In this document: one piece after another, positions 14,256 through 40,033 of the stretch | Layout of the letters: the number at the start of each line of letters is the position of its first letter | Position numbering within the stretch: position 1 is the stretch's first letter | Assembly (NCBI GenBank): GCA_964512915.1 | Contig: CAZEKJ010000002.1 | Coordinates: 152,977 to 216,976 of the forward strand | Origin: an uncultured Porphyromonadaceae bacterium | GTDB lineage: Bacteria > Bacteroidota > Bacteroidia > Bacteroidales > UBA12481 | DNA: 64,000 nt | Direction of reading: 5' to 3' | Made by a program: the position numbers and the translations under genes | The notes under the pieces: generated by a model | What the model was told of the DNA's origin: nothing | The model's database searches: none | What the model saw: only the letters and a program-made list of their open reading frames with translations

Positions 14256-14256
14256 G

Positions 14257-19157: not shown

Positions 19158-19184
19158 GTGGTAACTTTAAAAAACAGACAACTT

Positions 19185-23923: not shown

Positions 23924-26239
23924 ATGAAACCAGACCAAATTGCCCTTGAAAGAACTCTTGCAGCTGAAAGAAATGGGAGCATGCTTTTGGATTTATATGG
24001 CCTTGGAATTAATAGAATTCCAAAAGAAATTGGCAAATGTTATAAATTGAAGATTATTAGAGCCTGGAGTAATAACATAACCACCCTACCTAAAGAAATT
24101 GAAAATTTAACTCAACTTGAAACATTATATTTATCTGGTAATGAGATAGAATATTTATCAAAAGAAATAGGTGACTTGACCAATTTGAGAGAATTATATT
24201 TAGGAGGAAACCAACTAAAAGCAATTCCTATCGAATTAACTTTGTTGAAAAGACTAAAAAAGCTAATACTATCGGGCAATCAAATAACTGAACTACCAAT
24301 TGAATTTATAAATCTGAAATTAGAATATTTTGATTTAAGTAAAAACCCATTGATTAAACCACCGATTGAGATTGCCAATAAAAGCATGTCTTCAATTAAA
24401 AATTATTTTGTTTCAATTTCAAACGCAGAAGAACTTTACAATTTGCGAGAAGCAAAATTGTTAATTGTTGGTGAGGGAAATGTCGGAAAAACTTGTTTGA
24501 TGGAAAAACTTATAGACTCGACATTTAAGATTAATGAGAATATGCCTACAACAGAAGGGATTGATATTAAAAGATGGACTTTGCCAATAAATTCAAATTC
24601 ATCTGTAGACATTAATATATGGGATTTTGGAGGACAAGAAATATATCATTCGACCCATCAATTTTTTTTAACAAAGAGGTCAATATACCTATTTCTATGG
24701 ACAGCAAGGACAGATGATGATAGCAGTGGAAGGTTTGAATATTGGTTAAATGCAATTAAACTATTAAGTGATGAATCACCACTAATAATTGTGCAAAATA
24801 AAATTGATGAAAGAATCAAACTTATTGATGAAAAAACAATAAAAAATCAATATCCTAATGTTGTTGGTTTTGTAAACATAAGTGTGAAAACGGAGGATGG
24901 TTTGGATCAACTAATGAATGTCATTAAATTTGAATTATCCAGACTTCCACACTTAGGAGATGTTCTTCCAAAAGCATGGATTGAATTAAGACAAGAGCTT
25001 GAACATTTGAATCTGAATTATATTAGCTACAACCAATATTTAGCAATATGTAAAAGGTATTCTTTAACCGAAATACAAGCAGGATTCTTAGCTCGATACT
25101 TTCATGATCTTGGCGTATTTTTGCATTTTCATGAAAATTCAATTTTAAAATCTACAGTTTTTCTGAAACCTCAGTGGGCTACAAATGCTGTTTATAAAAT
25201 CATTGACACCAGGGATGTTCAATTGAATAATGGCAAATTTAGTTTCAGTGAGCTTAGTACTATTTGGTTTGATTATCCTTTCCAAAAGTTTTTTCACTTA
25301 CTTGAATTAATGAAAAAATTTGAACTTTGCTTTCAGATTGTAAATTCTCAAGAATACATTGTTCCTAATCTATTACCACCAATACAACCCAATTACGATT
25401 GGGATAAAAAAATTAACTTAAAACTTGAATATCATTACGAATTTATGCCTGCAGGAATTATTTCAAGATTTATTGTTAGGAACAGCGACTTAATTAAAGA
25501 AAATCTTTATTGGAAAAATGGGGTAGTTATTAGATATGAAAATGTTGAAGCTGAAATAGTATCTCACCAATTTGAGAAAAAATTAAAAATTAGTATAAAA
25601 GGAATAAACAAAAAAGGCTTGTTAAGTATAATTAGAAGAGAATTGGAAAATATTCATAAAACTCAGAATTATCCGGATGTAACCGAAATGATTCCCTGTA
25701 ATTGCAATGAATGCAAATCTTCAGATAGTCCATTTTTTCATTCTCATGACAACTTAATTAATGCAAAAAGAAAGAAAAAATTCAAAGTGCAATGTCAGAA
25801 TAGTTTTGACGATGTTGATATAGACAAATTACTTGATGGTGTTGGATCTCTGCCAAAATCTATTTTGTCAGGAATCGTAAACATTTACGGAAATAATAAT
25901 GAAATACATTTTGGCAACACCGAAATACAGAATCAAAGAGTTTACCGAGGAAACGAACAACTAGTGGAACTAATTATTAATTCTGTAGATAATAATATTT
26001 CAAGTGAAGATAAAGCATTAGTTCAGTTGATTTTAAATAATACAAAAACTGATAACGAGAAGGAATTACTTTTATCTAGCTTAAGTACCATTAAATCCGG
26101 TATAGAGCCAAAAAGAAAGAAAAATGAAGCCGCCAGCATATTGAGAAATTTTTTAAATACGACAGTCCTAGAAGCAGGCAAACATATTGTTAAAGAACTG
26201 ATTTCTAATGGAGCAGACTATCTTCAAACAATATTGTAA
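23924..26239 (+). CDS. LRR - Roc GTPase - COR (ROCO-type) protein with a Cys-rich insert and an unassigned C-terminal tail
   Basis: At least five LRR units are present (LxxLxLxxNxLxxLPxEI). Roc motifs are G1 GEGNVGKT, G3 WDFGGQE and G4 VQNKID. A COR-like region follows (WIELRQEL...FHDLGVFLHF...YIVPNLLP), then IPCNCNECKSSD and about 150 residues without a recognised motif. Confidence 0.8.
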   Translation: MKPDQIALERTLAAERNGSMLLDLYGLGINRIPKEIGKCYKLKIIRAWSNNITTLPKEIENLTQLETLYLSGNEIEYLSKEIGDLTNLRELYLGGNQLKAIPIELTLLKRLKKLILSGNQITELPIEFINLKLEYFDLSKNPLIKPPIEIANKSMSSIKNYFVSISNAEELYNLREAKLLIVGEGNVGKTCLMEKLIDSTFKINENMPTTEGIDIKRWTLPINSNSSVDINIWDFGGQEIYHSTHQFFLTKRSIYLFLWTARTDDDSSGRFEYWLNAIKLLSDESPLIIVQNKIDERIKLIDEKTIKNQYPNVVGFVNISVKTEDGLDQLMNVIKFELSRLPHLGDVLPKAWIELRQELEHLNLNYISYNQYLAICKRYSLTEIQAGFLARYFHDLGVFLHFHENSILKSTVFLKPQWATNAVYKIIDTRDVQLNNGKFSFSELSTIWFDYPFQKFFHLLELMKKFELCFQIVNSQEYIVPNLLPPIQPNYDWDKKINLKLEYHYEFMPAGIISRFIVRNSDLIKENLYWKNGVVIRYENVEAEIVSHQFEKKLKISIKGINKKGLLSIIRRELENIHKTQNYPDVTEMIPCNCNECKSSDSPFFHSHDNLINAKRKKKFKVQCQNSFDDVDIDKLLDGVGSLPKSILSGIVNIYGNNNEIHFGNTEIQNQRVYRGNEQLVELIINSVDNNISSEDKALVQLILNNTKTDNEKELLLSSLSTIKSGIEPKRKKNEAASILRNFLNTTVLEAGKHIVKELISNGADYLQTIL

Positions 26240-26403: not shown

Positions 26404-26850
26404 ATGATAAACATCTTCATTGAAAATTTACCATATAGACTTAGTGAACAAATAATCATTGAGTATAATAAAAGAATAAGTGACGTGAATTACTTTGTAT
26501 CGGGTAAGTATGATTACTATTCACACTTAAAGAAGGACATTGAAAGCATACAAATGTTGCTAGCTCTTTCTATTTTTTACAAAAGAGTATTGACAAACTT
26601 TGATTCCGCAACGAAATTTAGCTCAAGAGTAGTATTAAATAGTGAAGCAGAATCAATTCAACTCGGGACTTATGAGCTTACCCCAAAAGAGTTATTTAAA
26701 CTAAATAAGACTGTAATAGCTTTCAGAAAGCTTCTTGACCACTATTCAATTCCCATTGGACTTTTTGAATATTTAGAAACCAAAGAGTTTTTAAGAAAAG
26801 TAAAAATTTACAAAGACAGTTTGGAGCGTAATAAAGACAAAAATGGCTAA
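26404..26850 (+). CDS. hypothetical protein (148 aa)
   Basis: This is a clean AT-rich ORF with no motif recognised. Its stop overlaps the next gene's start by 8 nt, which suggests a two-gene unit. Confidence 0.5.
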   Translation: MINIFIENLPYRLSEQIIIEYNKRISDVNYFVSGKYDYYSHLKKDIESIQMLLALSIFYKRVLTNFDSATKFSSRVVLNSEAESIQLGTYELTPKELFKLNKTVIAFRKLLDHYSIPIGLFEYLETKEFLRKVKIYKDSLERNKDKNG

Positions 26851-27565
26851 TCCATTTAAAGAGATAAAAGAACTTACAAGAGACGTAGAAACGTATCTAC
26901 GAAAAAATCGGTCGACGATTTATAACAACTCTAAACGGATAAGTGATTTCTTTGAAATGGCTTGCTATAACAATATTGTTCGATTCTACGAGAATAGCGG
27001 ATATGATGTATTAATTCAGAATCTAAAAAGGAGCAAGTTTAATTATAAGTGCACTGCAGCGGGAAACCCTGAAAACTATTCATTTTTTGAAGCAAAGAAA
27101 AGAATAGGCGGACTTGAATATGTTTATGAAATAAGACATAATATCACTGTTCAATCTTATCATAACAATGACACTTATACTACACCAGACATCTCTGTTT
27201 TAAAGCCAAATTCAATTCTTGTAGATGATAACTTTTATGAAAGTAAAATGAAATACTATTATGTAAAAAACAGTTCACTTATTTCATTCTGCGAAGTAAA
27301 AAATTTTAATCCGTTTCCTGAGTTACTCTTTAACTTTATTGGCGTAGTAAATGAATTGCGTCCTAACCTATTGAGACAAGTTCGTAGTTCCGGAAAATCT
27401 CATATTGCAACAACATTAATGATTTCAGGTAAATCGAATAGTCACGCAGACAGAATAATAAATAACTTGCAAAACAGGTATCACATAAATATTCTTTGCG
27501 ACTTATTTAATATTGGAGGTGCAACCTTTGGACGATTTTCAATAAACAGACTAAAAACAGTATGA
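26843..27565 (+). CDS. predicted PD-(D/E)xK-fold (restriction-endonuclease-like) protein
   Basis: TPDISVL (PD), then 43 residues, then ISFCEVKNF (E-x-K), preceded by an acidic helix (DFFEMACYNNIV). The spacing and order fit the PD-(D/E)xK core. The call rests on motifs only. Confidence 0.45.
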   Translation: MANPFKEIKELTRDVETYLRKNRSTIYNNSKRISDFFEMACYNNIVRFYENSGYDVLIQNLKRSKFNYKCTAAGNPENYSFFEAKKRIGGLEYVYEIRHNITVQSYHNNDTYTTPDISVLKPNSILVDDNFYESKMKYYYVKNSSLISFCEVKNFNPFPELLFNFIGVVNELRPNLLRQVRSSGKSHIATTLMISGKSNSHADRIINNLQNRYHINILCDLFNIGGATFGRFSINRLKTV

Positions 27566-27578
27566 TGATAAGAAAAAA

Positions 27579-27716
27579 GGCTGCTAACACGGGTTTTGCG
27601 TCAGGCGGGCTGACCTGCAAACTTGGAGCGTTGTGCTTTTATTCAAGTTCAGTACTGGTTGACAGTTTTGTGCTCAGAAACACGCCCGAGGGCAAAGACC
27701 GAAACTGTTAGCTTAC
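27579..27716 (+). repeat. GC-richer imperfect palindrome between cassettes (attC-like)
   Basis: The outer boxes TGCTAAC (27582-27588) and GTTAGCT (27707-27713) are complementary at 6 of 7 positions. The arms CGGGTTTTGCGTCAGGCGGGC and GCCCGAGGGCAAAGACCG pair imperfectly with bulges. Length is about 138 nt. Confidence 0.35.
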
Positions 27717-27729
27717 ACAATTGTAAAAC

Positions 27730-28562
27730 ATGAATCCGGCTGAAGAATGTTTAAATTGTTTACAACAACAGAATTGGACTAGACTAAGTAGTATCCTTTC
27801 TGACAACAGTATTGCTGGTGTATTAGCGGAATCACCAACTTTTTCAATTTTTGAGAATATTTTTATCGACGAACTTAAAAAATTTGAGAAAGATTCAAAC
27901 CAAGATTTTCTTATTGTTGCAGTCAGGATTTTTCAAATTCACCAAAACAAAAATTCGGCTTTTAACCTCTCACATAATGCTTTATTGAAAATAGCAAAAT
28001 ATCTTTTCGATAAAAATCCCCAAGAAAATTATGCCAAAATATTTCATGATGACTCTGAAGCTCAACAATTTCTAGAAAATTATAACCATGAGATTCAGTC
28101 TAAAATAGAGACAACCCGTATTAGCGCAAATCTTAACATAAAAGTTGGTGAACATGCAGAAATAGTTTTTCAGAAAGAGATTTTTAATTCGCCTCAAGAG
28201 ATAGAGCTTTTCATAGCAGCAAAAAAGGTTTTACCAATTTCCATTTTACTTCCTAACATTGCTTTAAGTACGATTATCGATTCAAAGGTTTGTGAGTTTC
28301 TCGATAAATCAACCACCACATTTTTCTTCAAATCGACTATTGACCTTTGTATTGTTAATCCTTACACATTTACACCGGACTTTTCATTGAACTTGACAGC
28401 AGTTGGCATGATAAACCTAGAAACAAAGAGAATGATAAGAAAAAAAATGAGATTTTTAAAGTGGCAGGGTTGAAACTAAATAGGATCAGAAAAAGAGAGA
28501 ATAAAGAAATGATTGAAATCTTTGAACTATTTATTAAAAATACGCAAGCTAACGTCCGCTAA
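27730..28562 (+). pseudogene. DUF2726-type (NERD/endonuclease-like) protein, -1 frame break at a T4 run
   Basis: The frame reads ...STIDLCIVNPYTFTPDF up to TTTT 28381-28384. The -1 frame continues FIELDSSWHDKPRNKENDKKKNEIFKVAGLKLNRIRK..., the conserved IELDGxxHD...AG core of DUF2726, to TAA 28560-28562. Confidence 0.6.
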
Positions 28563-28644: not shown

Positions 28645-29648
28645 TTAAGAAGCAGTGTATGAATGCGCCTTACAGGCTAACAAGGTTATACCGGCAGTTT
28701 TATCATACACGTCATACGCTTGGTATCCATCACATTGCAAAGCACCTTGGTACGACTCTAACATCTCACCGGATTCCTGGCGGCTCCGGCTTTTACTGTA
28801 ATCGAACAGAACCAGATGATCTGGTGGAGAATGATATACCCAAAAATACCTTTTATACATAGCCCTGGGTTTATCTTGTGTTTGGACGGGAATCGGTGTC
28901 TCATCAACCTGCAGGTACTGACTTTGCTTAATCTGCTTCAAGAGAACCTCGTACAAAGGTTCCAACAGGCGGCATGTGGCCGAAAACCAGTCGTTCAGGG
29001 TCGATTCGGCCAGGTGACCCCCCTGGTCCCGGTTGAAAATCTGGGACTGGCGGTACAACGGAAGGTGGTCAATGTACTTGTTTGTCACAATGCTGGCCAG
29101 CAAGCTGGGGCCAGCGTTACTCGAAGGGATCGAAAGTTTGGGAAGGTCTGCGATCAGAATCTTCCCTGTCCCGGGATCTACGAACTTCGGACGGATGTAC
29201 TTAAGAACAAACTGGCGTCCGGGTTCATACTCCATGTGCTCATGCTTCTTAGGCCAATTTCTTTAAGACCTGTGACATCCTCTTCGGGCAACAGGATCTG
29301 TTCAATCCGGGGCAAATGGGCCGGAATAGCTTCGCGGACATGACCTTTTTTAGCCGTTTTGTTATGGGTATAGGCGATCTCCTCCTTTTCTGGTTCCAGA
29401 GCCTTCGCCTTTTCAAAACCTAGGTTCAATGCCAACTATGAGGGATCTTCGCGCACATGCCGTTCGCTTTTGCTCCCAAAAAGCATCCGCTTCAGGTTGG
29501 CCAGTTCCTGGCGAAGAAACTCGTAGTTGGCTTCCAGTTGCAATAAACGGTCATGCTCCGCTTTTGGAATGGTCACCTGATCGTTATGTTCTTCCCGTAA
29601 ACCCATATCCGAAGGTACAAAAATATTGGCTGAAAGCCCAATAAACAT
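28645..29648 (-). pseudogene. IS66-family transposase TnpC (frameshifted, C-terminus missing)
   Basis: The leucine-zipper N-terminus is LLQLEANYEFLRQELANLKRMLFGSKSER. After frame changes come ...KYIDHLPLYRQSQIF... and YLQVDETPIPV...YFWVY. The gene ends at ...LLACKAH without the NxLFxGS region. Confidence 0.75.
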
Positions 29649-29659
29649 TAATGTTTTAG

Positions 29660-30052
29660 CTAAAAACTTACCAACACATCAGGCCCGGTTTTGTTCAAGT
29701 CGGTCGAATTCTGAATATCGTTTTTTCGTTTGATATGAGTAATGGAAATCCCTTCGTTCATCTTCACCAACTCAGCCCAACTCATCACGAAGGTCATCGA
29801 GGACGAGTTAAAAGCAGGAAATTCCAGTGTGACTGTCTCAAGTCTTTTATAATAGAGAATGTATCCTCCCTCTTCCCAACGCAACAATTCTATCCGGTCA
29901 CGGCTATGATTAATGAAAATGAACACTTCTCCGGAACTTGCATTGCGGCGAAGTTGACGTTCGACCAAACCGCTCAACCCATCAAAATTCTTTCGCATAT
30001 CGGTAGGCTCACGAAACAAATAATAACAACAGGAGATGGTCAGTGCAAACAT
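29660..30052 (-). CDS. IS66 Orf2 (TnpB) accessory protein
   Basis: YLFREPTDMRKNFDGLSGLVERQL...IFINHSRDRIELLRWEEGGYILYYKRLE is the conserved IS66 TnpB core. Confidence 0.8.
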   Translation of the reverse strand: MFALTISCCYYLFREPTDMRKNFDGLSGLVERQLRRNASSGEVFIFINHSRDRIELLRWEEGGYILYYKRLETVTLEFPAFNSSSMTFVMSWAELVKMNEGISITHIKRKNDIQNSTDLNKTGPDVLVSF

Positions 30053-30643: not shown

Positions 30644-30730
30644 TCGTACCAAATTGTAGCCACTATCCTTGAACAAACCAAAGAAGTGGCTAACTTTATA
30701 ACAATATGACGGATAAAACACTTTAGGTTA
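30644..30730 (+). repeat. 87-bp repeat, copy 2 (first copy at 19071-19157)
   Basis: TCGTACCAAATTGTAGCCACTATCCTTGAACAAACCAAAGAAGTGGCTAACTTTATAACAATATGACGGATAAAACACTTTAGGTTA lies 46 nt upstream of the TIR operon start. Confidence 0.8.
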
Positions 30731-30776
30731 TGGGCAAGGCTAGGACGACATACAAACAACAGAATAAGACAATGAA

Positions 30777-31328
30777 ATGGCAATATTAACAAGAGGACAA
30801 TTTGCATCGATTGCTCAAACCAAAGCCGGGACAAGAGGACTTCGTGGCATCGTGAATGAGAGTAGAATGTTTTCAAAAGCAACTTCAATTACAAGCATTT
30901 TTCTTTCTCATTCACATACCGACAAAGACGTAATTGAACAAGCTAAAATTTTCTTTGAAAATTTAGGTATAAGCGTTTATGTCGACTGGGCAGACAAAAC
31001 AATGTCTGAAAGCACGAACGGAGAAACTGCACAAAAAATAAAAAAGCAAATCATTAACGGCAACGACAAATTTGTTTTGTTGGCGACAAATAATGCTGTT
31101 TCATCAAAATGGTGTAATTGGGAAGTTGGAATAGCAGACCCATTTAAACTTGCGAATAAAAAAATCGCATTACTGCCATTAGCAGACAACAGTGGTAATT
31201 GGAATGGAAACGAATACTTGCAAATTTATCCACGAATAGAAAGGAGTTCAACAAACTTGAATGAATACTACGTTTGGTATCCTGATGGAACTTTAGAAAC
31301 TATCTCAACTTGGTTAAACAGAAAATAA
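30777..31328 (+). CDS. stand-alone TIR-domain protein
   Basis: SIFLSHSHTDKD (strand A), ISVYVDW, and KFVLLATNNAVSSKWCNWEVG with the conserved W..E glutamate. The stop abuts the next start (taaATG at 31326-31331). Confidence 0.7.
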   Translation: MAILTRGQFASIAQTKAGTRGLRGIVNESRMFSKATSITSIFLSHSHTDKDVIEQAKIFFENLGISVYVDWADKTMSESTNGETAQKIKKQIINGNDKFVLLATNNAVSSKWCNWEVGIADPFKLANKKIALLPLADNSGNWNGNEYLQIYPRIERSSTNLNEYYVWYPDGTLETISTWLNRK

Positions 31329-32501
31329 ATGACTACAAAGTATCAAATTATTAAAATTGGTTCCGACAATCCTTTTTACAAAGAGGTATTGAATACTTTG
31401 TTTCATCATATTGAAGAGCTTGGTTTAGCAAAAGAATCAATCCTTGAAATTGATGAGAGCAATTTTCATAATGAATACAAAGGAAATGCTCCAGCATTTT
31501 GCCTATACTTTGGAAGCGATTCAGGTTCTTTCAAGAACCTTGATTTACTCGAAATTTTAATTAAGGAAGCCAGCTTAATACTCCCTATTGCCTCTGACTT
31601 AGACAAATTTAGTTCTCAAATTCCAAAAGAATTAGCGAATGTAAACGGCTTTGAATTAGCGACTAAAAATGACATTGAAAAACTTGTTTCGTGCATATTG
31701 GAAGGACTTAGTTTGTTACGACTTTCTCGAAGGCTATTTATTAGTTACAAAAGAGATGAATCTTCAACAGTCGCAATTCAATTGTTTGAGCAATTGGAAA
31801 AAAATGGCTTTGATGTTTTCCTTGACACACATAGTATTCGATCCGGTGAGCCTTTTCAAGAGGAACTTTGGCATAGAATGGCTGACACTGATGTAGTTGT
31901 TTTATTAAATACACCGGGATTTTTGAATAGCAATTGGACAACACAAGAGTTGGCTAAAGCCAACTCTATGTCAATTGGTATTTTACAGGTGATTTGGCCT
32001 TCACATAAACTTGAAAGAGATGCAGAATTAAGCATTCCGCTTCAATTAAGTGATTCCGATTTTGGGAACAGTATATTTAAGGAACCAACGAGTTATCTAA
32101 CCCAAAATACAATATCAAATATCATTAGACAAGTTGAATCGTTAAGAGCACGAAGTCTAGCTTCAAGACAAGACAATATAATTACTGAATTTATTGCATC
32201 TTCAAATAGAATTGGAAAAAAGGCTGACCTTCAATCTGAAAAATTTATCACAATCAAACGCAGTGATGGAAAAGAATTATTGATTATTCCAACTGTTGGT
32301 GTTCCTCAAGCATTTACTTATAACCAATCTGAAGAGTTAGTAGCGAGAATAAAATCCAAAAATGTGGCAGGTGCATACTTACTCTTTGACCATAGAAATA
32401 TTAGAGAAAAATGGATTAAACATTTGGATTGGTTAGACATTTATCTCCCAGTTAAAACAATTAAAATTGTAAAAGCAGAAGAATGGTTAAAGACAATTTA
32501 A
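31329..32501 (+). CDS. TIR-domain protein with unassigned N- and C-terminal extensions
   Basis: The central RLFISYKRDESSTVAIQLFEQLEKNGFDVFLDTHSIRSGEPF...VVVLLNTPGFLNSNWTTQELAKA is a TIR domain. The ~130-residue flanks on each side carry no motif I recognise. Confidence 0.7.
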   Translation: MTTKYQIIKIGSDNPFYKEVLNTLFHHIEELGLAKESILEIDESNFHNEYKGNAPAFCLYFGSDSGSFKNLDLLEILIKEASLILPIASDLDKFSSQIPKELANVNGFELATKNDIEKLVSCILEGLSLLRLSRRLFISYKRDESSTVAIQLFEQLEKNGFDVFLDTHSIRSGEPFQEELWHRMADTDVVVLLNTPGFLNSNWTTQELAKANSMSIGILQVIWPSHKLERDAELSIPLQLSDSDFGNSIFKEPTSYLTQNTISNIIRQVESLRARSLASRQDNIITEFIASSNRIGKKADLQSEKFITIKRSDGKELLIIPTVGVPQAFTYNQSEELVARIKSKNVAGAYLLFDHRNIREKWIKHLDWLDIYLPVKTIKIVKAEEWLKTI

Positions 32502-33073
32502 ATAAAGTGTTTTTATCTGCAAGTATTCCTTATCCCGACAGAGATAAGAAATTCTTTGATACTGCTGATATTGTTTCTATTAGAGATGCAGTGCGAGCAT
32601 TGGCAACTGTTGTAATCCCGAAAGCATATCTCATTTGGGGTGGACATCCTTCAATAACGCCTTTAATTCGTTTTGTGATGGATAAAATGAATGCAGATGT
32701 AAAAAAACACATTACACTTTACCAATCGTTATTTTTTGAAGATGAATTTCTTCCTGACAGCTTTACTTTTGAAAACATTGTGTTGACAAAAAGGAAAAAT
32801 ACCCGTGAGAAAAGTCTAGAATTAATGAGAAGCGAACTAATAAATGACAATGATTTTAATGTGGGAATTTTTATCGGTGGTATGGAAGGTATAAATGACG
32901 AATATTTGATGTTTAGGAATAAACATCCTAATGCTCTAATTTTACCGATTGCAAGCACAGGTGCTGCAGCAAAAATGCTTTACGATAACCAACCAAACAA
33001 ATTTGACCACAGATTACTGAATGATTACGCATATATGGCATTGTTCAGAGATTTACTTAAAAACTATATTTAA
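32483..33073 (+). CDS. stand-alone SLOG/LOG-like Rossmann-fold protein
   Basis: VFLSASIP (strand 1), the glycine loops LIWGGHPSITPL and IFIGGMEGINDE, and ILPIASTGAAA fit the SLOG (Smf/DprA-LOG) superfamily, the sensor fold of Thoeris ThsA. The gene overlaps the upstream gene by 19 nt. Confidence 0.55.
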   Translation: MVKDNLNKVFLSASIPYPDRDKKFFDTADIVSIRDAVRALATVVIPKAYLIWGGHPSITPLIRFVMDKMNADVKKHITLYQSLFFEDEFLPDSFTFENIVLTKRKNTREKSLELMRSELINDNDFNVGIFIGGMEGINDEYLMFRNKHPNALILPIASTGAAAKMLYDNQPNKFDHRLLNDYAYMALFRDLLKNYI

Positions 33074-33084
33074 TAATTACAATA

Positions 33085-33804
33085 ATGGGGAAAAAGATTT
33101 TTGTTTCATACAAATATTCTGACTCTCAAGTGCAGGATTTAAACATATATGAGGATGTGAAAAACATTTGGGGCAATGTGTATCGTCAAAAAGTAACAAC
33201 TACAGCCCGACATTATGTAGATAAAATTGATGAATTATTAGAAGCGGGTGACCATATTTTTAAAGGCGAAGATGATGGAGAGAATATGAGCACTCTCAAA
33301 GACGCTACAATCAGTTCAAAATTAGGAAACAAAATATTTGATAGCTCGGTAACTATTGTCTTGATCTCAAAAGGCATGAAGGAAACTTACAATGCTGAAA
33401 AAGATCAATGGATTCCTTGGGAGGTTTCATACTCTCTTAAAGAGCAATCAAGAGAAGGGGGAAGAAGTAAGACAAATGCTGTATTGGCAGTTGTGCTACC
33501 AGACATATTTGGAAGTTATAGTTATTATATCGAGGAAAACACTTGCCATTACTGTAATTGTAGGACCTTAAAGACGGATTTTCTTTTTCAAATTCTTCGA
33601 GATAATATGTTTAATGTGAAGAAGCCCGTTTTCACAGAATGTGAGAATCACATTGGGAGTAAACCCTATAAGGGATATTCGTCCTTTATGCATTCTGTTA
33701 AATGGTCGGACTTTATTTCAAATCCAAATTTGAATATCAACATAGCAGTTGAAATATGGCAAAATATTAATGATTATAAGATAACTAAAATTGTAACCCT
33801 ATAG
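33085..33804 (+). CDS. TIR-like protein of the DUF1863 / ThsB type
   Basis: KIFVSYKYSDSQ, a long insert, then SSVTIVLISKGMKETYNAEKDQWIPWEVSYSL. A C-terminal CHYCNC...C cluster is also present. Confidence 0.6.
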   Translation: MGKKIFVSYKYSDSQVQDLNIYEDVKNIWGNVYRQKVTTTARHYVDKIDELLEAGDHIFKGEDDGENMSTLKDATISSKLGNKIFDSSVTIVLISKGMKETYNAEKDQWIPWEVSYSLKEQSREGGRSKTNAVLAVVLPDIFGSYSYYIEENTCHYCNCRTLKTDFLFQILRDNMFNVKKPVFTECENHIGSKPYKGYSSFMHSVKWSDFISNPNLNINIAVEIWQNINDYKITKIVTL

Positions 33805-33806
33805 CC

Positions 33807-35660
33807 ATGGCGATTGTTTTTTTATCATATAACACTTTTGATACAAGCTACTTAAAAATTCTTAAAGAAAAGTTAAGTGAGGCCAATATAGATATATGGG
33901 AGGATAATGAAGGCATAAAACCTGGTTCCAATCTAAGGATAGAAATTGAAAAGGGAGTTAGAAAATCTAAGTATTTTCTTTTTTGTATAGGTGAAAATGG
34001 CATAGGACGCTGGCAAAAAGAAGAATTTGAAATAGCATATTATCAGAAAGTCAACAATAAGATCGTTATTATTCCAATTGTATTACCAAACGGGGGAAAA
34101 GAATTCGACTCAAATAAAACACCGAAGATTCTTAAGGTAATTAACTTTGTCAACTTTAATTCGGGTTTAAATGATAAAAAAGAATGGATTCGTTTTTTAA
34201 ATCTGTTAAGGATTAAACCTAAACATCAAGTTAAGGAAAATACTAGTGCTGATTTTCTGAGAAAAGCTGCCAGTGTCGCTTTATTTAATAATAATAGAAT
34301 TCTATTATTGAGAAGAAACGAAAAAAATAAAAATGGAATAGGGCAATGGCAATTGCCAGGTGGTAAAATAGGAAGAGAAAATGAACTTACGGCAATCCAA
34401 AGAGAAGTTAAGGAAGAAGTTGGTATCAATATTCCTAAAAACAACTTTAAATATTTGACCGTTGTAAAAGATGTATGGCTTGATAAAAGTTCAGGAATAT
34501 CGTTACAAATGAGTCTCTATACATGCGAAATTGATTCAGTGGAAATCCTTCTTGAAAACGAGTTTGATGAATTTATTTGGATAGATATCAATGAAATATC
34601 TAACCGAAAAGACATAATCCTCTTTGGCATAAACAATCGTTTGGTAAAAATTATAAGAAGATATAAAAACATTACTTTGCCGCTACGAGAAATATCAGAA
34701 CATCTTGAATCAAATTATATAATCTATCCTGTTTTAATTTCCAGCCTTCCGATTAATTCAAGCTATGTTTTACTGGATATGTTAAGTATGTTCGGAATTA
34801 TAGATGACAATTCAGGTTTTATAGCTTCATCAAATTTATCAGCCTCTATTTTGAATATTTTTTCAATTTGGGCTTTATCTGAACAGAAAATTTTTGAGAA
34901 TACGGTGACCGATATTTCTTTTAATAAAAAAAGCAATGAACTCAATCCCAAAATATTTGAAAGTCATCACGCAATAGTAGATTTATTTTCAAAGAGACTA
35001 GGTATTCCGATTAGTCAGAGAAGTGTTTGTGATACTTTGCTATTAATAGAAGATGAATTAGTTGGTAAAACATTTTTACTCATGCGGTGGGATTTTAGGG
35101 CAAATAAGTTTCAAATCCCAGCAAAAGGATTAGAATTATTGGAAGGCGATAAAAGGGAAATGCCTGCAAAGTTTGTAGTTAGCCAAAGATTTGGACATGA
35201 ATGTGTTTCAATGTTTAGGTATCAACACCTTGGAAATTTCAGCACCGTTCATCAAAGTGCTGGAAGCCTTATGGATGGAACCCTTATTAGAGATTATCAT
35301 ATAAGTTTGTTTGGATTAATTCTAATAAAACAGCATTTTGAAAAATTTATTAATAAAGTGGAGGGAATAAATTCAGAAGCGGTAAAGGTTCTGAATTCAA
35401 AAAAAACATTATCAACTGATAAACATCCTTCAATATACTTTTGGGTTGAGTTAGATATGCTCAAAAAAAATCCAACGGAATTATTCAATCATCAAATTCA
35501 AGGCTTCAATGAGATATTAAATAGTTTGGGATTTGATATTTTTAATAGAATTAAGCAATTTAGCGCCATTGATATTTCAAAAACCAGAATACAAATTCTA
35601 GATAATATTAGCAGTAAGTTCCTTAAGTCATTAAATAAGAAAGAAAAGCCCAGCCGATAA
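33807..35660 (+). CDS. TIR - NUDIX hydrolase fusion with ~330-residue unassigned C-terminal region
   Basis: The N-terminal IVFLSYNTFD...YFLFCIGENGIGRWQKEEFEIAY is a TIR domain. An exact Nudix box GGKIGRENELTAIQREVKEEVGI (G-x5-E-x7-REUxEExGU) follows. The remaining C-terminal region has no motif I recognise. The start lies 2 nt after the upstream stop. Confidence 0.8.
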   Translation: MAIVFLSYNTFDTSYLKILKEKLSEANIDIWEDNEGIKPGSNLRIEIEKGVRKSKYFLFCIGENGIGRWQKEEFEIAYYQKVNNKIVIIPIVLPNGGKEFDSNKTPKILKVINFVNFNSGLNDKKEWIRFLNLLRIKPKHQVKENTSADFLRKAASVALFNNNRILLLRRNEKNKNGIGQWQLPGGKIGRENELTAIQREVKEEVGINIPKNNFKYLTVVKDVWLDKSSGISLQMSLYTCEIDSVEILLENEFDEFIWIDINEISNRKDIILFGINNRLVKIIRRYKNITLPLREISEHLESNYIIYPVLISSLPINSSYVLLDMLSMFGIIDDNSGFIASSNLSASILNIFSIWALSEQKIFENTVTDISFNKKSNELNPKIFESHHAIVDLFSKRLGIPISQRSVCDTLLLIEDELVGKTFLLMRWDFRANKFQIPAKGLELLEGDKREMPAKFVVSQRFGHECVSMFRYQHLGNFSTVHQSAGSLMDGTLIRDYHISLFGLILIKQHFEKFINKVEGINSEAVKVLNSKKTLSTDKHPSIYFWVELDMLKKNPTELFNHQIQGFNEILNSLGFDIFNRIKQFSAIDISKTRIQILDNISSKFLKSLNKKEKPSR

Positions 35661-35736: not shown

Positions 35737-35850
35737 ATGGTGAAAAAGAGTAGAAAGAAACACAGCGCGATTTTTAAAGTACAAGTGGCCATTGAGGCAA
35801 TCAAGGAAGTCGAGACGCTGAGCGATCTGGCGAAGCGAGTTGAGGTTATT
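35737..35850 (+). pseudogene. IS3-family OrfA, N-terminal fragment
   Basis: MVKKSRKKHSAIFKVQVAIEAIKEVETLSDLAKRVEV matches the HTH start of IS3/IS911-type OrfA and then loses similarity. Confidence 0.5.
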
Positions 35851-36058
35851 TCCCTCCCCACACTCCGTAATTTTCGGAATGATCTACTTTTTCACCCCGT
35901 ATAGCTTCAAATTCAAACTGTTGTATGCGATTACCGGTTGCAGGGAGTTGCTAAAATCAGATGATTGGGCAATCATCATGGATGGTGAGTATCCGTCCGG
36001 TGTACTGCATCTTGTGAATGAAATCGGATCGTTATAGATTGCCAGGTTTAACCATGGC

Positions 36059-36253
36059 TTATTTTCCCCATCGGTCCGGAAGCGGGTTTCGGAGTTCGCT
36101 TTGTTTGGTGTCCTGGATGCGGGAAAGCAGATCGGCAAACCAGGTTTGCGGATTAACGCCATTCATCTTGCAACTCCCGGTGAACGAATAGATATTGGCC
36201 AACCGCTTAGCTCCTTCATGACTCCCGGCAAACAGGTAATTTTCTCTCCCCAA
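36059..36253 (-). pseudogene. IS66-family transposase, C-terminal fragment
   Basis: GRENYLFAGSHEGAKRLANIYSFTGSCKMNGVNPQTWFADLLSRI is the conserved NxLFxGS...CKxNGxNP end of IS66 TnpC. It has the same orientation as the IS66 remnant at 28.6-30.4 kb. Confidence 0.7.
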
Positions 36254-36465: not shown

Positions 36466-36660
36466 ATGAAAATTAAAGAGTTATCGATTTCTGATTTGAA
36501 GGCGGCGTATGATTTTGTTTTATTGGATTTAGCTGATTTAGAAGAGAATGTTGAAGGAAAGAACGTTTCTACAGATAAAATACCTGCCTATGGCGAAGTA
36601 AAAGAAATGGAAAATATTTTGTGGCAAGAACTATTGAATAGAATTCGATTTCTAGAATAG
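36466..36660 (+). CDS. hypothetical small acidic protein (64 aa)
   Basis: This is an ATG-initiated AT-rich ORF on the same strand as neighbouring cassettes. No motif was recognised. Confidence 0.35.
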   Translation: MKIKELSISDLKAAYDFVLLDLADLEENVEGKNVSTDKIPAYGEVKEMENILWQELLNRIRFLE

Positions 36661-36674
36661 AATTTAAAATATAT

Positions 36675-36749
36675 GGGGTAGCATAGATAGGACTAATGCG
36701 CTGAATTCAGAAATGAAAACAGATAGACGGGTTCGATTCTCTTCCCCCA
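36675..36749 (+). other. tRNA-like remnant (acceptor and T-arm-like ends, no anticodon arm)
   Basis: 5' GGGGTAG can pair with 3' CTTCCCC at 6 of 7 positions. A T-loop-like ACGGGTTCGATTCTCTT is present. The middle is the loop-less palindrome CTGAATTCAG, so no anticodon stem-loop can form. Confidence 0.3.
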
Positions 36750-36811
36750 CATTTTTTAGTTGTATGACAGAAATAGAAATAAGAAATAGCCATGAGTAAA
36801 TTAAAATAAAA

Positions 36812-37525
36812 GTGGTAATTCTAGGACAACTACCAATTAGTTTAAACCAGACAACAATTTCAAATTGGAAATCCGATATCTTTGAAATAGTTAAACCTAT
36901 TGATCATATTGGTATAACAAAAAATGCTGATGGAAAACGTTGGGAATATTTGGACAATAATATTGAGAGCCAATTACCGAAAACGTTTGAAGGTGATTTT
37001 CTAATTGCCATTACACGCGTTCCACTTGAAGACAATTATTACGCAAGAAGATTTAGTAATAATCGTATCTGTATGACCTTTTATGAAATGGCAGACATTC
37101 TAAAGTCAAGTAATATTCCTTTTGAAAATTTAATCTATAGGCTTCTCTATTCTTATTGTTTGATCTACAAACGATACGGAAACAGAATCCCCCCAAAAGC
37201 AGAAGTAACAAGTTTTACTCATGATGAAACTAGAGGTTGTTTATTTGATATGAATGGAATTAAAAGCGACATTATCTATTCTACTGACAAACCTATAATT
37301 TGTAAAAGTTGTGTTGTGAAATTAATTAATGAAAAGGTTCCGGAAAATGAAGTTGAAACTTTACAAAAAGAATTAAAGAGAATAACAAAGGGACTTTATT
37401 TCCAAATTCTTGACTTTATTAAAAACAACCCGATATGGACGTTAATTATTTCGTCTTTGACAGCAATCATTTTAGGGACGATTGGATCTGTGATAGCTTC
37501 CATTTTATATGAAAAAATTAAGTAA
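36812..37525 (+). CDS. hypothetical protein with a Cys pair and a C-terminal TM anchor
   Basis: A GTG start is the only in-frame start available. RGCLFDMNGIKSDIIYSTDKPIICKSCVVKL is followed by a C-terminal hydrophobic helix IWTLIISSLTAIILGTIGSVIASILY. Confidence 0.5.
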   Translation: MVILGQLPISLNQTTISNWKSDIFEIVKPIDHIGITKNADGKRWEYLDNNIESQLPKTFEGDFLIAITRVPLEDNYYARRFSNNRICMTFYEMADILKSSNIPFENLIYRLLYSYCLIYKRYGNRIPPKAEVTSFTHDETRGCLFDMNGIKSDIIYSTDKPIICKSCVVKLINEKVPENEVETLQKELKRITKGLYFQILDFIKNNPIWTLIISSLTAIILGTIGSVIASILYEKIK

Positions 37526-38291: not shown

Positions 38292-39341
38292 ATGGACATA
38301 TTAAAAGTACAAGAACAACTCGACAAAAATCGCAGAACTGTTTCGTTCGACAGTTACGATATCACTGTTAGACAACTTTATGACATGGTGATTGAAAAAA
38401 TGATTGACGTTGCTCCCGAGTACCAGAGACATTTCGTGTGGGGCGAAGAAAGACAATCGCAATTGGTTGAGTCCATTTTCCTAGGTATTCCCGTCCCTAG
38501 TCTCTTTATGGCTACAAATAAAGATTCAACTTGGGAAGTAATTGACGGTTTACAAAGACTGACCACAATAGTGAACTACATTGGTGATCAAGATACAATT
38601 GCCCGCATAAACAAAAACTGCAGTAAATTAAAAATTGAAGGACTTGAAAAACTAGATTCACTTAATGGTCACTACTTCGAAAATTTACCAAGGTCCCTTC
38701 AAAATATGTTTCTTACTCGCCCAATAAGAGTGACTGTGTTGAATGATAGAAGTGATTTTAGCTTACGATTTGATCTATTTGAAAGACTAAACACTGGCGG
38801 AGTAACACTTCACCCGCAAGAGATTCGAAATTGCATTTACTTAGGTGAGTTTAATGAATTCTTAAAGAAATGTGTAAGTAACCCGAACTTTAAAAACGTA
38901 ATAAAACTTACAAAAAATGCTGAGAGAACCGGAAATTTAGAGGAGCTTGCTCTCAAATTCTTCGCCTATTACGAAAGTAAAGACACATTTATTCATAGTG
39001 TTAAAGATTTTTTAAATTCGTACATGGCAGGTAAAATGTCAAATTTTAAAAATAAAGACAAGCTTAAAGATTTGTTTGATAACACTTTTGAAAAACTCAA
39101 TGAATTGCTCCCTGATGGAATTGTTCGGGGTAATAGAAAAAACATTACTCCTTTAGTTCTTTATGAAGCAATTGCTGTTGGTGTTGCGGATGTAATCGGT
39201 GAAAACAGAGCTATTAATGGACAAATTCTCATCGAATTGTTGAATGACCCAGAATTGAATCGTTTGACCACTGGTGCGACTAACTCTAGATCCAAATTGT
39301 ATCAAAGAATTGAATACGTTAAAGAGAGGCTTATAGGATGA
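38292..39341 (+). CDS. DUF262 (ParB/Srx-fold, GmrSD N-terminal-like) protein
   Basis: PEYQRHFVWGEERQSQLVESIFLGIPVPSLF...WEVIDGLQRLTTI is the DUF262 signature, including the DGQQR-type box. Confidence 0.8.
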   Translation: MDILKVQEQLDKNRRTVSFDSYDITVRQLYDMVIEKMIDVAPEYQRHFVWGEERQSQLVESIFLGIPVPSLFMATNKDSTWEVIDGLQRLTTIVNYIGDQDTIARINKNCSKLKIEGLEKLDSLNGHYFENLPRSLQNMFLTRPIRVTVLNDRSDFSLRFDLFERLNTGGVTLHPQEIRNCIYLGEFNEFLKKCVSNPNFKNVIKLTKNAERTGNLEELALKFFAYYESKDTFIHSVKDFLNSYMAGKMSNFKNKDKLKDLFDNTFEKLNELLPDGIVRGNRKNITPLVLYEAIAVGVADVIGENRAINGQILIELLNDPELNRLTTGATNSRSKLYQRIEYVKERLIG

Positions 39342-40033
39342 GTTACGCTATCATCAAAAATAGAGCGAGAGCTAGATTTAGTGAGAATCTCACTTACTTG
39401 AACCATTTAACTGCAATAGAACCGAATGACCCTACGATCCCTGCTTCACTTGAACTGAAGATAATGAAAGGACTATTCTATGTTCATTTATATTCATCGT
39501 TAGAAAAGACTATCAATGATTTATTAGAAAATACTATTATTTACATTAATTCTGAAAATATTAAAAATAAACATTACAACATTCCGTTTAACACAATTTC
39601 CCTACTGGATAAACTTCGTTCGTTTAAAGACTGTGGCTATAAGAATTTCTTCTTAAAAGCAATAGAAATATTCGAAGAGTTAAGTGGTGAAAATATACCA
39701 GTATTAAATGAAACAGCATTTTCAAACAGACTCCAAAACGTTTGGACAAAAACGATTATTGAAATGCTTCAAGCTTTTGGAATTAACAATTACACAATCG
39801 ATCCCAGAACAAGGACCACAATAGATGAAATAGTTGACAAAAGAAATGCTGTTGCACATGGAAGAGAATCAGCGTCGACTATAGGCGAAAGGTTTAGAAC
39901 AGATGTATTAAGAGTAAAAACGACTGTTGTTACAACTTTTAGTTACGACCTGATTGACACGTTTGAAAGCTATCACACCAGTAAGAAGTATTTAAAGCCG
40001 CAAGCAAGAAGATTTTATGTTGCGACACTATAG
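39338..40033 (+). CDS. HEPN-domain protein (MAE_28990/MAE_18760-like), predicted RNase
   Basis: It has a helical body with IVDKRNAVAHGRES (the R-N-x3-H HEPN motif) near the C-terminal third. It overlaps the DUF262 gene by 4 nt (ATGA). Confidence 0.65.
   Translation: MSYAIIKNRARARFSENLTYLNHLTAIEPNDPTIPASLELKIMKGLFYVHLYSSLEKTINDLLENTIIYINSENIKNKHYNIPFNTISLLDKLRSFKDCGYKNFFLKAIEIFEELSGENIPVLNETAFSNRLQNVWTKTIIEMLQAFGINNYTIDPRTRTTIDEIVDKRNAVAHGRESASTIGERFRTDVLRVKTTVVTTFSYDLIDTFESYHTSKKYLKPQARRFYVATL

Follow-up and report, generated by a model that had tools for sequence, protein, structure and literature searches.

The gene cluster at positions 30777 to 35660 on the + strand of the window, which is the whole 64-kb stretch of DNA analyzed here, belongs to the type III Thoeris family. 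It consists of five tightly packed genes for four TIR proteins and one stand-alone SLOG protein (Table 1), with the core-plus-cassette architecture of this family, conserved catalytic-type residues, and a location in a defence island. The complete locus is most probably a type III Thoeris anti-phage system with a ThcB4-ThcA core, accessory TIR cassettes, and, in gene 5, a TIR-NUDIX protein as a regulatory add-on. The core of this system is already known, and the novelty is the rare TIR-NUDIX fifth gene.

Table 1. Features of the cluster and its flanks (positions in the window)
Feature	Position	Strand	Description
Upstream flank	28645..30052	-	Broken GC-rich mobile-element remnant; split ORFs, GC 43-52%
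Type III Thoeris DNA homology block	30727..33796	+	Genes 1-4; blastn
Gene 1	30777..31328	+	183 aa; accessory ThsB-type TIR protein, catalytic-type Glu116
Gene 2 (ThcB4)	31329..32501	+	390 aa; TIR between N- and C-terminal conserved regions
Gene 3 (ThcA)	32483..33073	+	196 aa; stand-alone SLOG domain
Gene 4	33085..33804	+	239 aa; accessory ThsB/DUF1863-type TIR protein
Gene 5	33807..35660	+	617 aa; TIR, NUDIX, helical linker, pseudo-NUDIX
Gene 5, TIR domain	33807..34205	+	Residues 1-133; WQxxE motif with E73
Gene 5, NUDIX domain	34254..34622	+	Residues 150-272; intact Nudix box
Gene 5, helical linker	34632..35003	+	Residues 276-399; AF2 secondary structure
Gene 5, second NUDIX-fold domain	35004..35576	+	Residues 400-590; AF2 and Foldseek
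Downstream flank	35737..36253		Two transposase fragments; translation, tblastn

The ThcB4-ThcA core and the accessory TIR genes

In literature that cites van den Berg et al. (2024, Cell Host Microbe 32:1427), type III Thoeris consists of several TIR proteins and an effector with a SLOG domain, and its signalling is uncharacterised. The reference composition used here is that given in citing papers and in the names of NCBIfam models. A phage inhibitor of type III Thoeris, TadIII-1, exists.

Gene 2 scored 446.1 bits with the NCBIfam equivalog model NF058526 (Thoeris_type3_ThcB4, cut-off 220), covering positions 1 to 374 of 375, and gene 3 scored 241.5 bits with the equivalog NF058525 (Thoeris_type3_ThcA, cut-off 110). 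Both cut-offs were passed about twofold, which contradicts the statement of the first-pass annotation that the operon fits no described Thoeris type. Gene 2 also matched PADLOC PDLC00434 (3.2e-121) and, with residues 137 to 213, Pfam TIR_2 (6.5e-14), and gene 3 matched the Pfam SLOG family LD_cluster3 over its full length (8.7e-61). Residues 135 to 235, approximately, of ThcB4 are a SARM1/AbTIR-like TIR domain; PDB matches were confined to this part, and the conserved N- and C-terminal flanks are without an assigned fold. E207 of ThcB4, the Glu of the W..E motif, was present in 100% of 74 sequences, and the motifs W52-G-G-H-P and G132-G-M-x-G-x3-E140 of ThcA were invariant (n = 77 sequences). 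When only those related loci were counted in which both genes could be called, ThcB4 was situated directly 5' of ThcA in 74 of 74, and the 19-nt overlap of the two genes, here at positions 32483 to 32501, was kept in 63 of them. ThcB4 and ThcA are the translationally coupled, conserved core pair of type III Thoeris. The ThcA family comprised 2605 clusters, and 207 confirmed matches were found in a one-genome-per-species collection.

Of the three accessory TIR proteins around the core pair, two are encoded by genes 1 and 4 and the third by gene 5. Gene 1 matched Pfam TIR_2 (3.5e-10) and ThsB_TIR (1.5e-05) as well as the PADLOC ThsB model PDLC00436 over its full length (5.6e-61), and gene 4 matched Pfam ThsB_TIR with 27.9 bits (cut-off 21.2) and the PADLOC ThsB model PDLC00428 (3.2e-81). 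No match of genes 1, 4, and 5 to any Thc-specific NCBIfam model was found. Homologs of gene 1 and gene 4 occurred in 54 and 47, respectively, of 80 ThcA loci, with E116 conserved in 98% of the gene 1 type and E113 in 98% of the gene 4 type. The number of small TIR genes around the ThcB4-ThcA pair varied from 0 to 4 or more per type III locus, and some loci were two-gene minimal systems with ThcB4 and ThcA alone. Exchange of TIR cassettes is the norm in the type III family.

The description of the operon given by the first-pass annotation agreed with these data. The ORF coordinates reproduced the five same-strand genes, the taaATG junction of genes 1 and 2 (positions 31326 to 31331), the 19-nt overlap, and the gaps of 11 nt between genes 3 and 4 and 2 nt between genes 4 and 5. 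Pfam profile matches backed the four TIR products and the SLOG protein as third gene, and the W..E Glu is indeed kept in all four TIR proteins, including gene 5, the E73 of which was present in six of six other TIR-bearing members of alignment A2. The assignment to a Thoeris-kind TIR/SLOG immune module with several TIRs and a free SLOG protein was upheld by the Pfam, PADLOC, and NCBIfam matches and by the defence island.

As in type I Thoeris with its SIR2-SLOG protein ThsA and its TIR protein ThsB, presumed TIR signal generators are paired with a presumed SLOG receptor in the window. Type I, however, has one TIR gene compared to up to four here, and the system in the window is without SIR2; its SLOG domain stands alone and is of the LD_cluster3 and not the STALD kind. 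A weak, on-target similarity was found between ThcA and the region of the ThsA SLOG domain that binds the ligand (Pfam STALD, 1.2e-4; PDB 7uxt_B, residues 420 to 459, E 0.12). Ordinary type III members, on the other hand, combine ThcA as a free-standing SLOG protein with several TIR proteins, including a ThcB4 of about 390 aa, in one operon, as does the window, and they also share the DNA of genes 1 to 4, which was 78 to 84% identical in blastn comparisons (84% over 3071 nt with locus L001, 78% with locus L003). This homology ended 8 nt 5' of the gene 4 stop codon, and no match to any of seven close type III loci was found by blastn beyond position 33796. A named system matches genes 1 to 4 of the five-gene architecture, but gene 5 with its 617-aa TIR-NUDIX-linker-pseudo-NUDIX product occurred in no other type III locus examined.

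Domains of the gene 5 product

The TIR domain of gene 5 (Pfam TIR_2, 2.2e-18, residues 4 to 123) matched, by sequence, enzymatic TIRs in the PDB, Cat1 and AbTIR among them. In the adjacent NUDIX domain (Pfam NUDIX, 4.3e-16, residues 152 to 267), the Nudix box GGKIGRENELTAIQREVKEEVGI, as read from the translation, is an exact fit to GX5EX7REUXEEXGU, as claimed before. E191, R199, E203, and E204 of the box are nearly invariant in the gene 5 family, and MutT-type structures matched this domain with a target-normalised TM-score of up to 0.87.

About 330 residues that followed had appeared unassignable and can now be divided, using AF2 and Foldseek, into a helical linker and a degenerate second NUDIX fold. 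The mean pLDDT of the full-length model was 84.5. Tentatively, the linker may be a winged-helix-like module of the kind present in NrtR/AraR-type NUDIX regulators, to judge from the alignment of the full-length model with the NUDIX+wHTH proteins 2fml and 5bs6 over 190 to 240 columns at a high rmsd. The second NUDIX-fold domain was also modelled separately (pLDDT 88.7, pTM 0.86). Almost all of the 50 Foldseek PDB matches listed were NUDIX-fold proteins (AraR, NudI, Ap4A hydrolase, CFIm25, AvrM14), with E values from 8e-5 to 2e-3 and query-normalised TM-scores of 0.2 to 0.44; AraR, 2fml, and CFIm25 were among the best matches listed, with modest TM-scores of 0.3 to 0.44. The domain is without REx2EE, and with the Nudix box lost, ligand binding is likelier than catalysis; the modelled second NUDIX fold is likely a ligand-binding and not a catalytic module. 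A NUDIX fold without the catalytic box is shared with the non-catalytic, ligand-binding folds of NrtR/AraR-type regulators and CFIm25, but gene 5 carries it in one chain with a TIR domain and an active NUDIX. R427, D429, Q436, R461, and G486 of this domain are invariant in the family.

Origin of gene 5 and genomic surroundings

Relatives of gene 5 formed 35 clusters among 1.84 billion representatives, the best with 39% identity, and have the architecture (TIR or DUF4062)-NUDIX-CTD. All seven loci of TIR-bearing relatives with both flanks contained RelA_SpoT and HD_4 partners, in the order RelA_SpoT, TIR-NUDIX, and HD_4. One partner is a SAS-like RelA_SpoT protein (73 bits with the YjbM model), the other an HD protein resembling the SpoT hydrolase. 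No name for such RelA_SpoT/(TIR or DUF4062)-NUDIX-NUDIX'/HD_4 operons was found in PADLOC v2, NCBIfam, or the literature searched. Gene 5 shares its four-part architecture and all invariant residues with its relatives in these native operons (L009-L011, L125-L127, L131), to which it is 28 to 36% identical over the full length. ThcA and ThcB4 are absent there, whereas the alarmone-synthetase-like and SpoT-hydrolase-like partners are absent here, and neither was found in the whole window. These partners presumably resemble toxic small alarmone synthetase/small alarmone hydrolase (toxSAS-SAH) modules, from which we take the native operons to differ by the TIR-NUDIX gene between the partners; the window has only this middle gene.

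Among the type III loci, 87 of which were fetched (about 80 distinct), none had a NUDIX domain in the operon, and the usual fifth gene encodes a 206-aa ThsB_TIR protein, starting 0 to 4 nt after gene 4. In type III Thoeris, gene 5 is a foreign element that replaces this ThsB-type gene. Since 87 loci are without a NUDIX in the operon and some consist only of ThcB4 and ThcA, type III Thoeris needs no NUDIX. This argues against the original proposal of a new NAD-signal module apart from described Thoeris, with the NUDIX or C-terminal domain of gene 5 as effector or obligatory quencher. The proposal agrees with an intact Nudix box, a gene 5 tightly coupled to gene 4, and five proteins without SIR2, Macro, transmembrane, or nuclease domains in the Pfam search, but the equivalog-level assignment of ThcA and ThcB4 and the nucleotide identity of genes 1 to 4 with ordinary type III loci also speak against it, and it is highly improbable. 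The NUDIX is an add-on and not the effector of the system because no type III locus examined has one in its operon and the relatives sit in RelA_SpoT/HD_4 operons.

Both flanks of the cluster contain mobile-element debris. The upstream remnant is read from its sequence as IS66-type, with an accessory-protein ORF and frame-shifted transposase pieces; its 130-aa ORF matched at least 5000 plasmid records, the top ones of which are unannotated. Downstream, debris begins 76 nt past the gene 5 stop codon, with an N-terminal fragment of an IS3-like transposase (37 codons, + strand from 35737; tblastn to an annotated IS3-like ISRj2 family transposase, E 2e-3) and a C-terminal IS66 transposase fragment (- strand, 36059 to 36253; tblastn to an IS66 family transposase, E 2e-13). 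The original sequence 3' of gene 5 has been replaced. The operon was said to be AT-rich relative to its IS flanks, and its GC content is indeed 29 to 36%, against 43 to 52% for the IS66 remnant at 28.5 to 30.5 kb; the IS pieces are GC-rich and the operon is not unusually AT-rich, since the remaining window has 28 to 36% GC.

A singleton in this position, with lost partners and IS debris 76 nt later, may be non-functional or independent. Gene 5 would then be a stranded passenger from a RelA_SpoT/TIR-NUDIX/HD_4 operon, left by recombination and IS activity beside a four-gene type III Thoeris system and either inert or acting by itself, with no signal exchanged with ThcA or ThcB4. This explanation fits the abrupt end of type III homology and a combination that is unique in the loci examined, 87 of type III and about 20 of the gene 5 family, but the 617-aa ORF is intact and keeps the Nudix box and all 12 residues that are invariant in the family, its GC content matches the operon, and its start lies 2 nt past gene 4, where related operons of this cassette-exchanging family have a fifth TIR gene. 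A passenger is rather unlikely, albeit the likeliest of the alternatives.

The cluster sits in a defence island. Defence genes in the window include PDC-S46, LRR-Roc-COR, and an NsnA-like GmrSD_N protein with HEPN. In Flavobacteriia, a type III cassette was located between hsdS and hsdR.

Proposed mode of action

No signalling step of type III Thoeris is published, and we infer the signal, its reception by ThcA, and how the cell is killed from the type I system and from the known biochemistry of TIR and SLOG proteins. Infection would be detected by at least one of the TIR proteins, which would turn NAD+ into an ADP-ribose-derived messenger. ThcA would bind this messenger with E140 and the two glycine loops and, by itself or complexed with ThcB4, would then stop the infected cell. 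Killing could result from NAD+ depletion by the SARM1-like TIR domain of ThcB4 or from ThcA cleaving the N-glycosidic bond of a nucleotide in a LOG-like manner. In one enterobacterial ThcB4-ThcA locus, a patatin-like phospholipase is encoded among the TIR genes, which questions ThcA as the effector in every locus.

Alternatively, the gene 5 NUDIX might convert the TIR product instead of sensing or quenching it, cleaving a 2'- or 3'-cADPR-type pyrophosphate into a phosphoribosyl-AMP-like signal that is recognised by ThcA. Plant EDS1 signals include pRib-AMP/ADP, and TIR and active NUDIX are fused here in one chain. Moreover, ThcA belongs to the SLOG superfamily as a relative of the AMP-binding LOG enzymes, and review text assigns an action on AMP-type nucleotides to LOG-like members. 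As a rule, however, type III systems have no NUDIX, so that ThcA is generally independent of a NUDIX-processed ligand, and in its native operons the gene 5 family is partnered with alarmone-type enzymes and not with SLOG proteins. Such a conversion is improbable.

In the preferred reading as a regulatory add-on, the 3' cassette in the window has been swapped for a TIR-NUDIX-linker-pseudo-NUDIX protein from the RelA_SpoT/TIR-NUDIX/HD_4 operon type. Gene 5 would add a further TIR signal generator to the system. A nucleotide ligand would be bound by its pseudo-NUDIX, and its active NUDIX would either hydrolyse this ligand or trim the ADPR-type signal, a regulatory and not an effector function. 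For the family, the accessory TIR genes are interchangeable cassettes, which probably allow a wider range of phage cues to be sensed.

Assignment of the operon to type III Thoeris

The core of the operon is a known and named system, type III Thoeris, which occurs commonly in Bacteroidota and also in other groups. The product of gene 3 passed the NCBIfam equivalog model for ThcA with 241.5 bits (cut-off 110) over positions 1 to 184 of 184, and that of gene 2 passed the model "Thoeris type III anti-phage system protein ThcB4" with 446.1 bits (cut-off 220) over almost the whole length. The layout was also that of type III: a stand-alone SLOG protein of the LD_cluster3 type (ThcA) with about 185 to 200 aa, a TIR protein with about 375 to 390 aa (ThcB4) encoded directly upstream, and further TIR proteins in the same operon, with the products of genes 1, 4, and 5 above the Pfam cut-offs for TIR_2 or ThsB_TIR. 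According to the first-pass annotation, none of the described Thoeris types fits the cluster. Both ThcB4 and ThcA equivalogs were matched, and therefore this statement was wrong: the "missing ThsA" is ThcA. This correction, by which the cluster ceases to be an unclassifiable Thoeris-like system, is the main practical result. Due to the fifth gene, the operon counts as a variant not described before.

TABLE Positions of the operon genes, of other features in the window, and of comparison loci
Feature	Position	Strand	Content
Gene 1	30777-31328	+	Pfam TIR_2 and ThsB_TIR; full-length PADLOC ThsB match
Gene 2 (ThcB4)	31329-32501	+	Central Pfam TIR_2 domain; NCBIfam NF058526
Gene 3 (ThcA)	32483-33073	+	Full-length SLOG LD_cluster3 (PF18180), E 8.7e-61; NCBIfam NF058525
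Gene 4	33085-33804	+	Pfam ThsB_TIR; full-length PADLOC ThsB match
Gene 5	33807-35660	+	Pfam TIR_2 and NUDIX, exact Nudix box
DNA similarity to type III loci	30727-33796		84% to L001, a close type III Thoeris relative
mad3-like pair	12066-15504		729-aa mad3-like ATPase and overlapping 421-aa ORF, upstream of PDC-S46
PDC-S46	19158-21362		Full-length match to PADLOC candidate, 832 bits
Transposase and recombinase	21639-23715	-	IS91-family (Y2) transposase and tyrosine recombinase, overlapping ends
LRR-Roc-COR gene	23924-26239		771-aa ROCO-type GTPase protein
Two ORFs	26843-28473		240 and 247 aa, no family match
IS66-type remnant, left	28645-30052	-	N-terminal pieces
IS66-type remnant, right	35884-36253	-	C-terminal piece
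Small ORF	36466-36660		64 aa
tRNA-like stretch	36728-36751		Resembles T-arm and 3' end of a tRNA (cgGGTTCGATTCtcttcccccaca)
ORF with hydrophobic C-terminal tail	36812-37525		237 aa
NsnA-like pair	38292-40033		GmrSD_N protein matching PADLOC NsnA (9e-72) and PD-T4-2_A, then HEPN RiboL-PSP; 4-nt overlap
RelA_SpoT/TIR-NUDIX/HD_4 operons	L009:6904-10451		
	L010:6922-10501		
	L011:6934-10478		
hsdS/hsdR insertions (Flavobacteriia)	L084:3088-13159		ThcB4, ThcA, small TIR genes
	L095:3044-12564		ThcB4, ThcA, small TIR genes
	L104:3147-13243		ThcB4, ThcA, small TIR genes
L199, Citrobacter youngae plasmid	NZ_CP102501.1 20053-30613		ThcB4-ThcA locus with five TIR genes

The gene order was read correctly before: all five open reading frames on the plus strand and their junctions, taaATG, a 19-nt overlap, an 11-nt gap, and a 2-nt gap, were found again, and a Pfam profile scan of the five proteins recovered the TIR, SLOG, and NUDIX domains that had been claimed. 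A SIR2 or Macro effector domain, already reported as missing, was indeed not matched in the five proteins by Pfam or PADLOC. This sets the operon apart from type I Thoeris, with its ThsA that carries SIR2 fused to a STALD-type SLOG domain (STALD was hit with 22 bits, below the cut-off of 24, and the PADLOC ThsA models only at E 0.0015 to 0.017), and from type II, with an effector composed of a Macro domain and transmembrane helices. The 2023 version of PADLOC, which is without a type III Thoeris model, assigned genes 1, 2, and 4 to full-length ThsB families and gene 3 weakly to ThsA-SLOG. A profile of ThcA matched the SLOG domain of ThsA in the PDB only weakly (E 0.12). Type III Thoeris has been described in the literature, after van den Berg et al.; in a review, its SLOG domain is stated to differ from the STALD type of ThsA. 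Elsewhere in the literature, TadIII-1 is mentioned as a phage inhibitor.

None of the Thc-specific NCBIfam models matched genes 1, 4, or 5. The accessory TIR proteins vary among the loci, so the system may not be defined by identity with ThcB1 to ThcB3. When folds were sought for the two ends of ThcB4, N- and C-terminal, the PDB sequences matched its profile in the TIR part alone, and a profile-profile comparison with ThcA also gave nothing (probability 0.4%).

The operon had been called AT-rich relative to its IS flanks. With 29 to 36% GC, it was indeed below the IS remnant on its left side (43 to 52%), but the rest of the window was similarly low with about 30 to 35%, and therefore the IS pieces are the odd ones. 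Scans for sigma-70 promoters and terminators performed no better than on shuffled sequence and are uninformative; the closest relatives are Bacteroidota, the promoters of which differ from the sigma-70 type.

Conservation and variation around the ThcB4-ThcA pair

ThcA homologs formed 2605 clusters, and 207 encoding stretches were confirmed in a collection with one genome per species. Seven close and 80 further loci were examined, a few of which were the same contigs fetched twice. Of the 80 further loci, 79 carried ThcB4. In all 74 loci where both genes were callable, ThcB4 directly preceded ThcA; the 19-nt overlap of the two genes seen in the window was kept in 63 of these 74. Around the pair, the number of small TIR genes ranged from 0 to 4 or more, and these were of several types: that of gene 1 (54 of the 80 further loci), that of gene 4 (47 of 80), and others with 160 to 170 aa or 206 aa, which were also ThsB_TIR proteins. 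Some loci consisted of the ThcB4-ThcA pair alone. The catalytic-type Glu of the TIR proteins was conserved to 98 to 100%, and the ThcA motifs W52-G-G-H-P and G132-G-M-x-G-x3-E140 were invariant. In many Flavobacteriia, a type I restriction-modification operon hosts the cassette, with hsdS on one side of it and hsdR on the other. Adjacency of the pair, variation of the cassettes, conserved residues, and defense-type neighbors together fit a defense system in which the ThcB4-ThcA core is fixed and the TIR cassettes are exchangeable.

Besides the three hsdS/hsdR insertions in the table, about ten other loci of Flavobacteriia were of this kind, and a Schlafen/AlbA_2 or GmrSD_N protein was sometimes inserted there too. 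On the Citrobacter youngae plasmid, at an enterobacterial locus identical in four Escherichia coli genomes (L199), a patatin-like protein annotated as "CBASS cGAMP-activated phospholipase" was located among the five TIR genes, with a Tn7-like TnsD gene alongside. As a hidden general effector this phospholipase was rejected, since neither the window nor any of the 87 other loci contained it; in the L199 variant, it may serve as an explicit effector. In the RefSeq annotation of the E. coli copies, ThcA is a "hypothetical protein."

Build and origin of gene 5

The DNA similarity to type III loci ended 8 nt before the stop codon of gene 4. In the closest relatives, a 206-aa ThsB_TIR gene follows at this position, and the window contains the 617-aa gene 5 instead. 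Searches with tblastn and HMMs for the NUDIX, linker, and C-terminal parts of gene 5 in the operons of the 87 loci were negative. Many type III loci are thus free of NUDIX, and some are two-gene loci, which contradicts the earlier proposal that the NUDIX or the C-terminal domain serves as the effector of a new system and makes it most improbable. Alternatively, the NUDIX domain of gene 5, the Nudix box of which is exact, might convert a TIR product into the true ligand of ThcA; this is very unlikely.

The exact box (GX5EX7REUXEEXGU), noted before in the last gene, was confirmed in the translation. It is part of a NUDIX domain at residues 150 to 272, which scored 59.6 bits with PF00293 (cut-off 21.1) and matched MutT-type structures with TM-scores, normalized to the target, of up to 0.87. 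About 330 residues following the box had been left unassigned, and AF2 models now resolve them into a helical linker and a second NUDIX fold. Because the Foldseek matches of the full-length model (pLDDT 84.5) were dominated by the canonical NUDIX domain, residues 400 to 617 were modeled separately (pLDDT 88.7, pTM 0.86). Among the PDB matches listed for this second model, at a Foldseek probability of about 1, almost all were NUDIX proteins, including the non-catalytic AraR/NrtR type and CFIm25. The NUDIX fold was supported for residues 400 to 590, and the Nudix box was absent: the helix at the box position, PAKFVVSQRF, is without the catalytic Glu pair. This region is here called a pseudo-NUDIX domain (NUDIX').

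Relatives of gene 5 are rare. A word-based search found one. When residues 286 to 617 were compared exhaustively by phmmer with 1.84 billion representatives, 35 clusters were recovered, with a best identity of 39%. The family architecture is an N-terminal domain, TIR_2 in 8 of 29 and DUF4062 in 15 of 29 members, followed by NUDIX and the C-terminal domain. Gene 5 aligned over its full length with 28 relatives, kept all invariant columns, and retained every catalytic residue in its first NUDIX domain. Neither ThcA nor ThcB4 was present in the loci of its TIR-bearing relatives. Gene 5 could be a stranded, independent, or inert passenger of the operon, which is possible but on the unlikely side. 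In the favored reading, gene 5 would act as an extra TIR signal generator under the control of a nucleotide-sensing pseudo-NUDIX and a ligand-clearing NUDIX domain.

The relatives with a TIR domain have a fixed context. In all seven loci with both flanks, a RelA_SpoT gene was located immediately upstream and an HD_4 gene immediately downstream; three more contigs, which were cut upstream, still carried the HD gene. This trio encodes proteins of 353 to 366 aa (RelA_SpoT), about 630 aa (TIR-NUDIX-pseudo-NUDIX), and 176 to 183 aa (HD_4), and was found in three genomes from three phyla (L009 to L011) and on four metagenome contigs (L125 to L127 and L131). The genomes belong to Ignavibacteriota, Acidobacteriota, and Bacteroidota. 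Of the two partners, the RelA protein is similar to small alarmone synthetases (YjbM model) and the HD protein to the hydrolase domain of SpoT. PADLOC v2 and NCBIfam contained no model for the trio as a named system, and the papers searched contained no description of it. In Collinsella and others, the middle protein has DUF4062 or another N terminus in place of TIR and is without the RelA_SpoT and HD_4 partners.

Gene 5 shares the architecture of the middle protein, [TIR or DUF4062]-NUDIX-linker-NUDIX', but the flanking RelA_SpoT and HD_4 genes are missing beside it, and tblastn with three of each partner gave no match across the 64 kb of the window (best E 0.26). An IS3-like transposase fragment begins 76 nt after the stop codon of gene 5, followed by an IS66 transposase fragment. 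The trio context of the relatives, the absent partners, and the IS debris after the stop codon indicate that gene 5 was borrowed as a module from a different system and came to occupy the position of the 3' cassette in a type III Thoeris operon. Its original downstream neighbor, if ever carried along, is lost. A further step, that the gene 5 family forms with RelA_SpoT and HD_4 a conflict system coupling pyrophosphorylated nucleotides of the alarmone type to TIR/NAD+ chemistry, and that the window displays its rewiring into type III Thoeris, is speculative and rather unlikely as a whole.

Defense surroundings and proposed mode of action

Neighbors of the operon in the window are PDC-S46, a protein of the LRR-Roc-COR type, and the NsnA-like GmrSD_N protein with its HEPN partner. 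The operon is thus located in a defense island, and this location, together with the insertions into restriction-modification operons elsewhere, lends contextual support to the predicted protection against phages. The PDC-S46 match and the mad3-like ATPase pair are more defense-island content, and the NsnA-like pair is probably another defense system. The IS91-family transposase and the tyrosine recombinase lie between defense genes. The LRR-Roc-COR gene and the two ORFs following it directly precede the IS remnant at the edge of the Thoeris operon. IS66-type remnants, on the minus strand in both cases, flank the operon; as the left one holds N-terminal pieces and the right one a C-terminal piece, their order does not fit one split element, so that these are probably two decayed copies. 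The tRNA-like stretch was not called as a tRNA or tmRNA gene by ARAGORN or Rfam and is possibly the remnant of an old attachment site. The 237-aa ORF, preceded by the 64-aa ORF, is located after the IS debris and before the NsnA-like pair and had no Pfam, PADLOC, or NCBIfam match.

Beyond membership, architecture, residue conservation, and context, which were observed, a mode of action may be drawn from the analogy to type I Thoeris and from the TIR and SLOG biochemistry described in review text. The TIR proteins would sense the infection and produce an NAD+-derived messenger, which would be bound by ThcA. ThcA, perhaps in a complex with the translationally coupled ThcB4, would subsequently arrest the cell, either via the SARM1-like TIR domain of ThcB4 or via a LOG-like N-glycosidase chemistry.

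Type III Thoeris is widespread, and the comparison provides three experimental handles: the invariant, translationally coupled ThcB4-ThcA pair, which is able to stand alone; the remaining TIR genes as swappable cassettes; and the conserved catalytic-type Glu of every TIR protein plus the glycine loops and Glu of ThcA. Gene 5 points to a rare family that is otherwise locked between alarmone-synthetase-like and alarmone-hydrolase-like genes. If the RelA_SpoT/TIR-NUDIX/HD_4 trio is a defense system, nucleotides of the stringent-response type would be linked to TIR signaling. If the rewiring into type III Thoeris is also true, this would mean that TIR generators with nucleotide-sensing NUDIX modules are exchangeable between alarmone-based and ADPR-based immune pathways, and that, in addition to phage proteins, a nucleotide cue triggers a response of the operon in the window.
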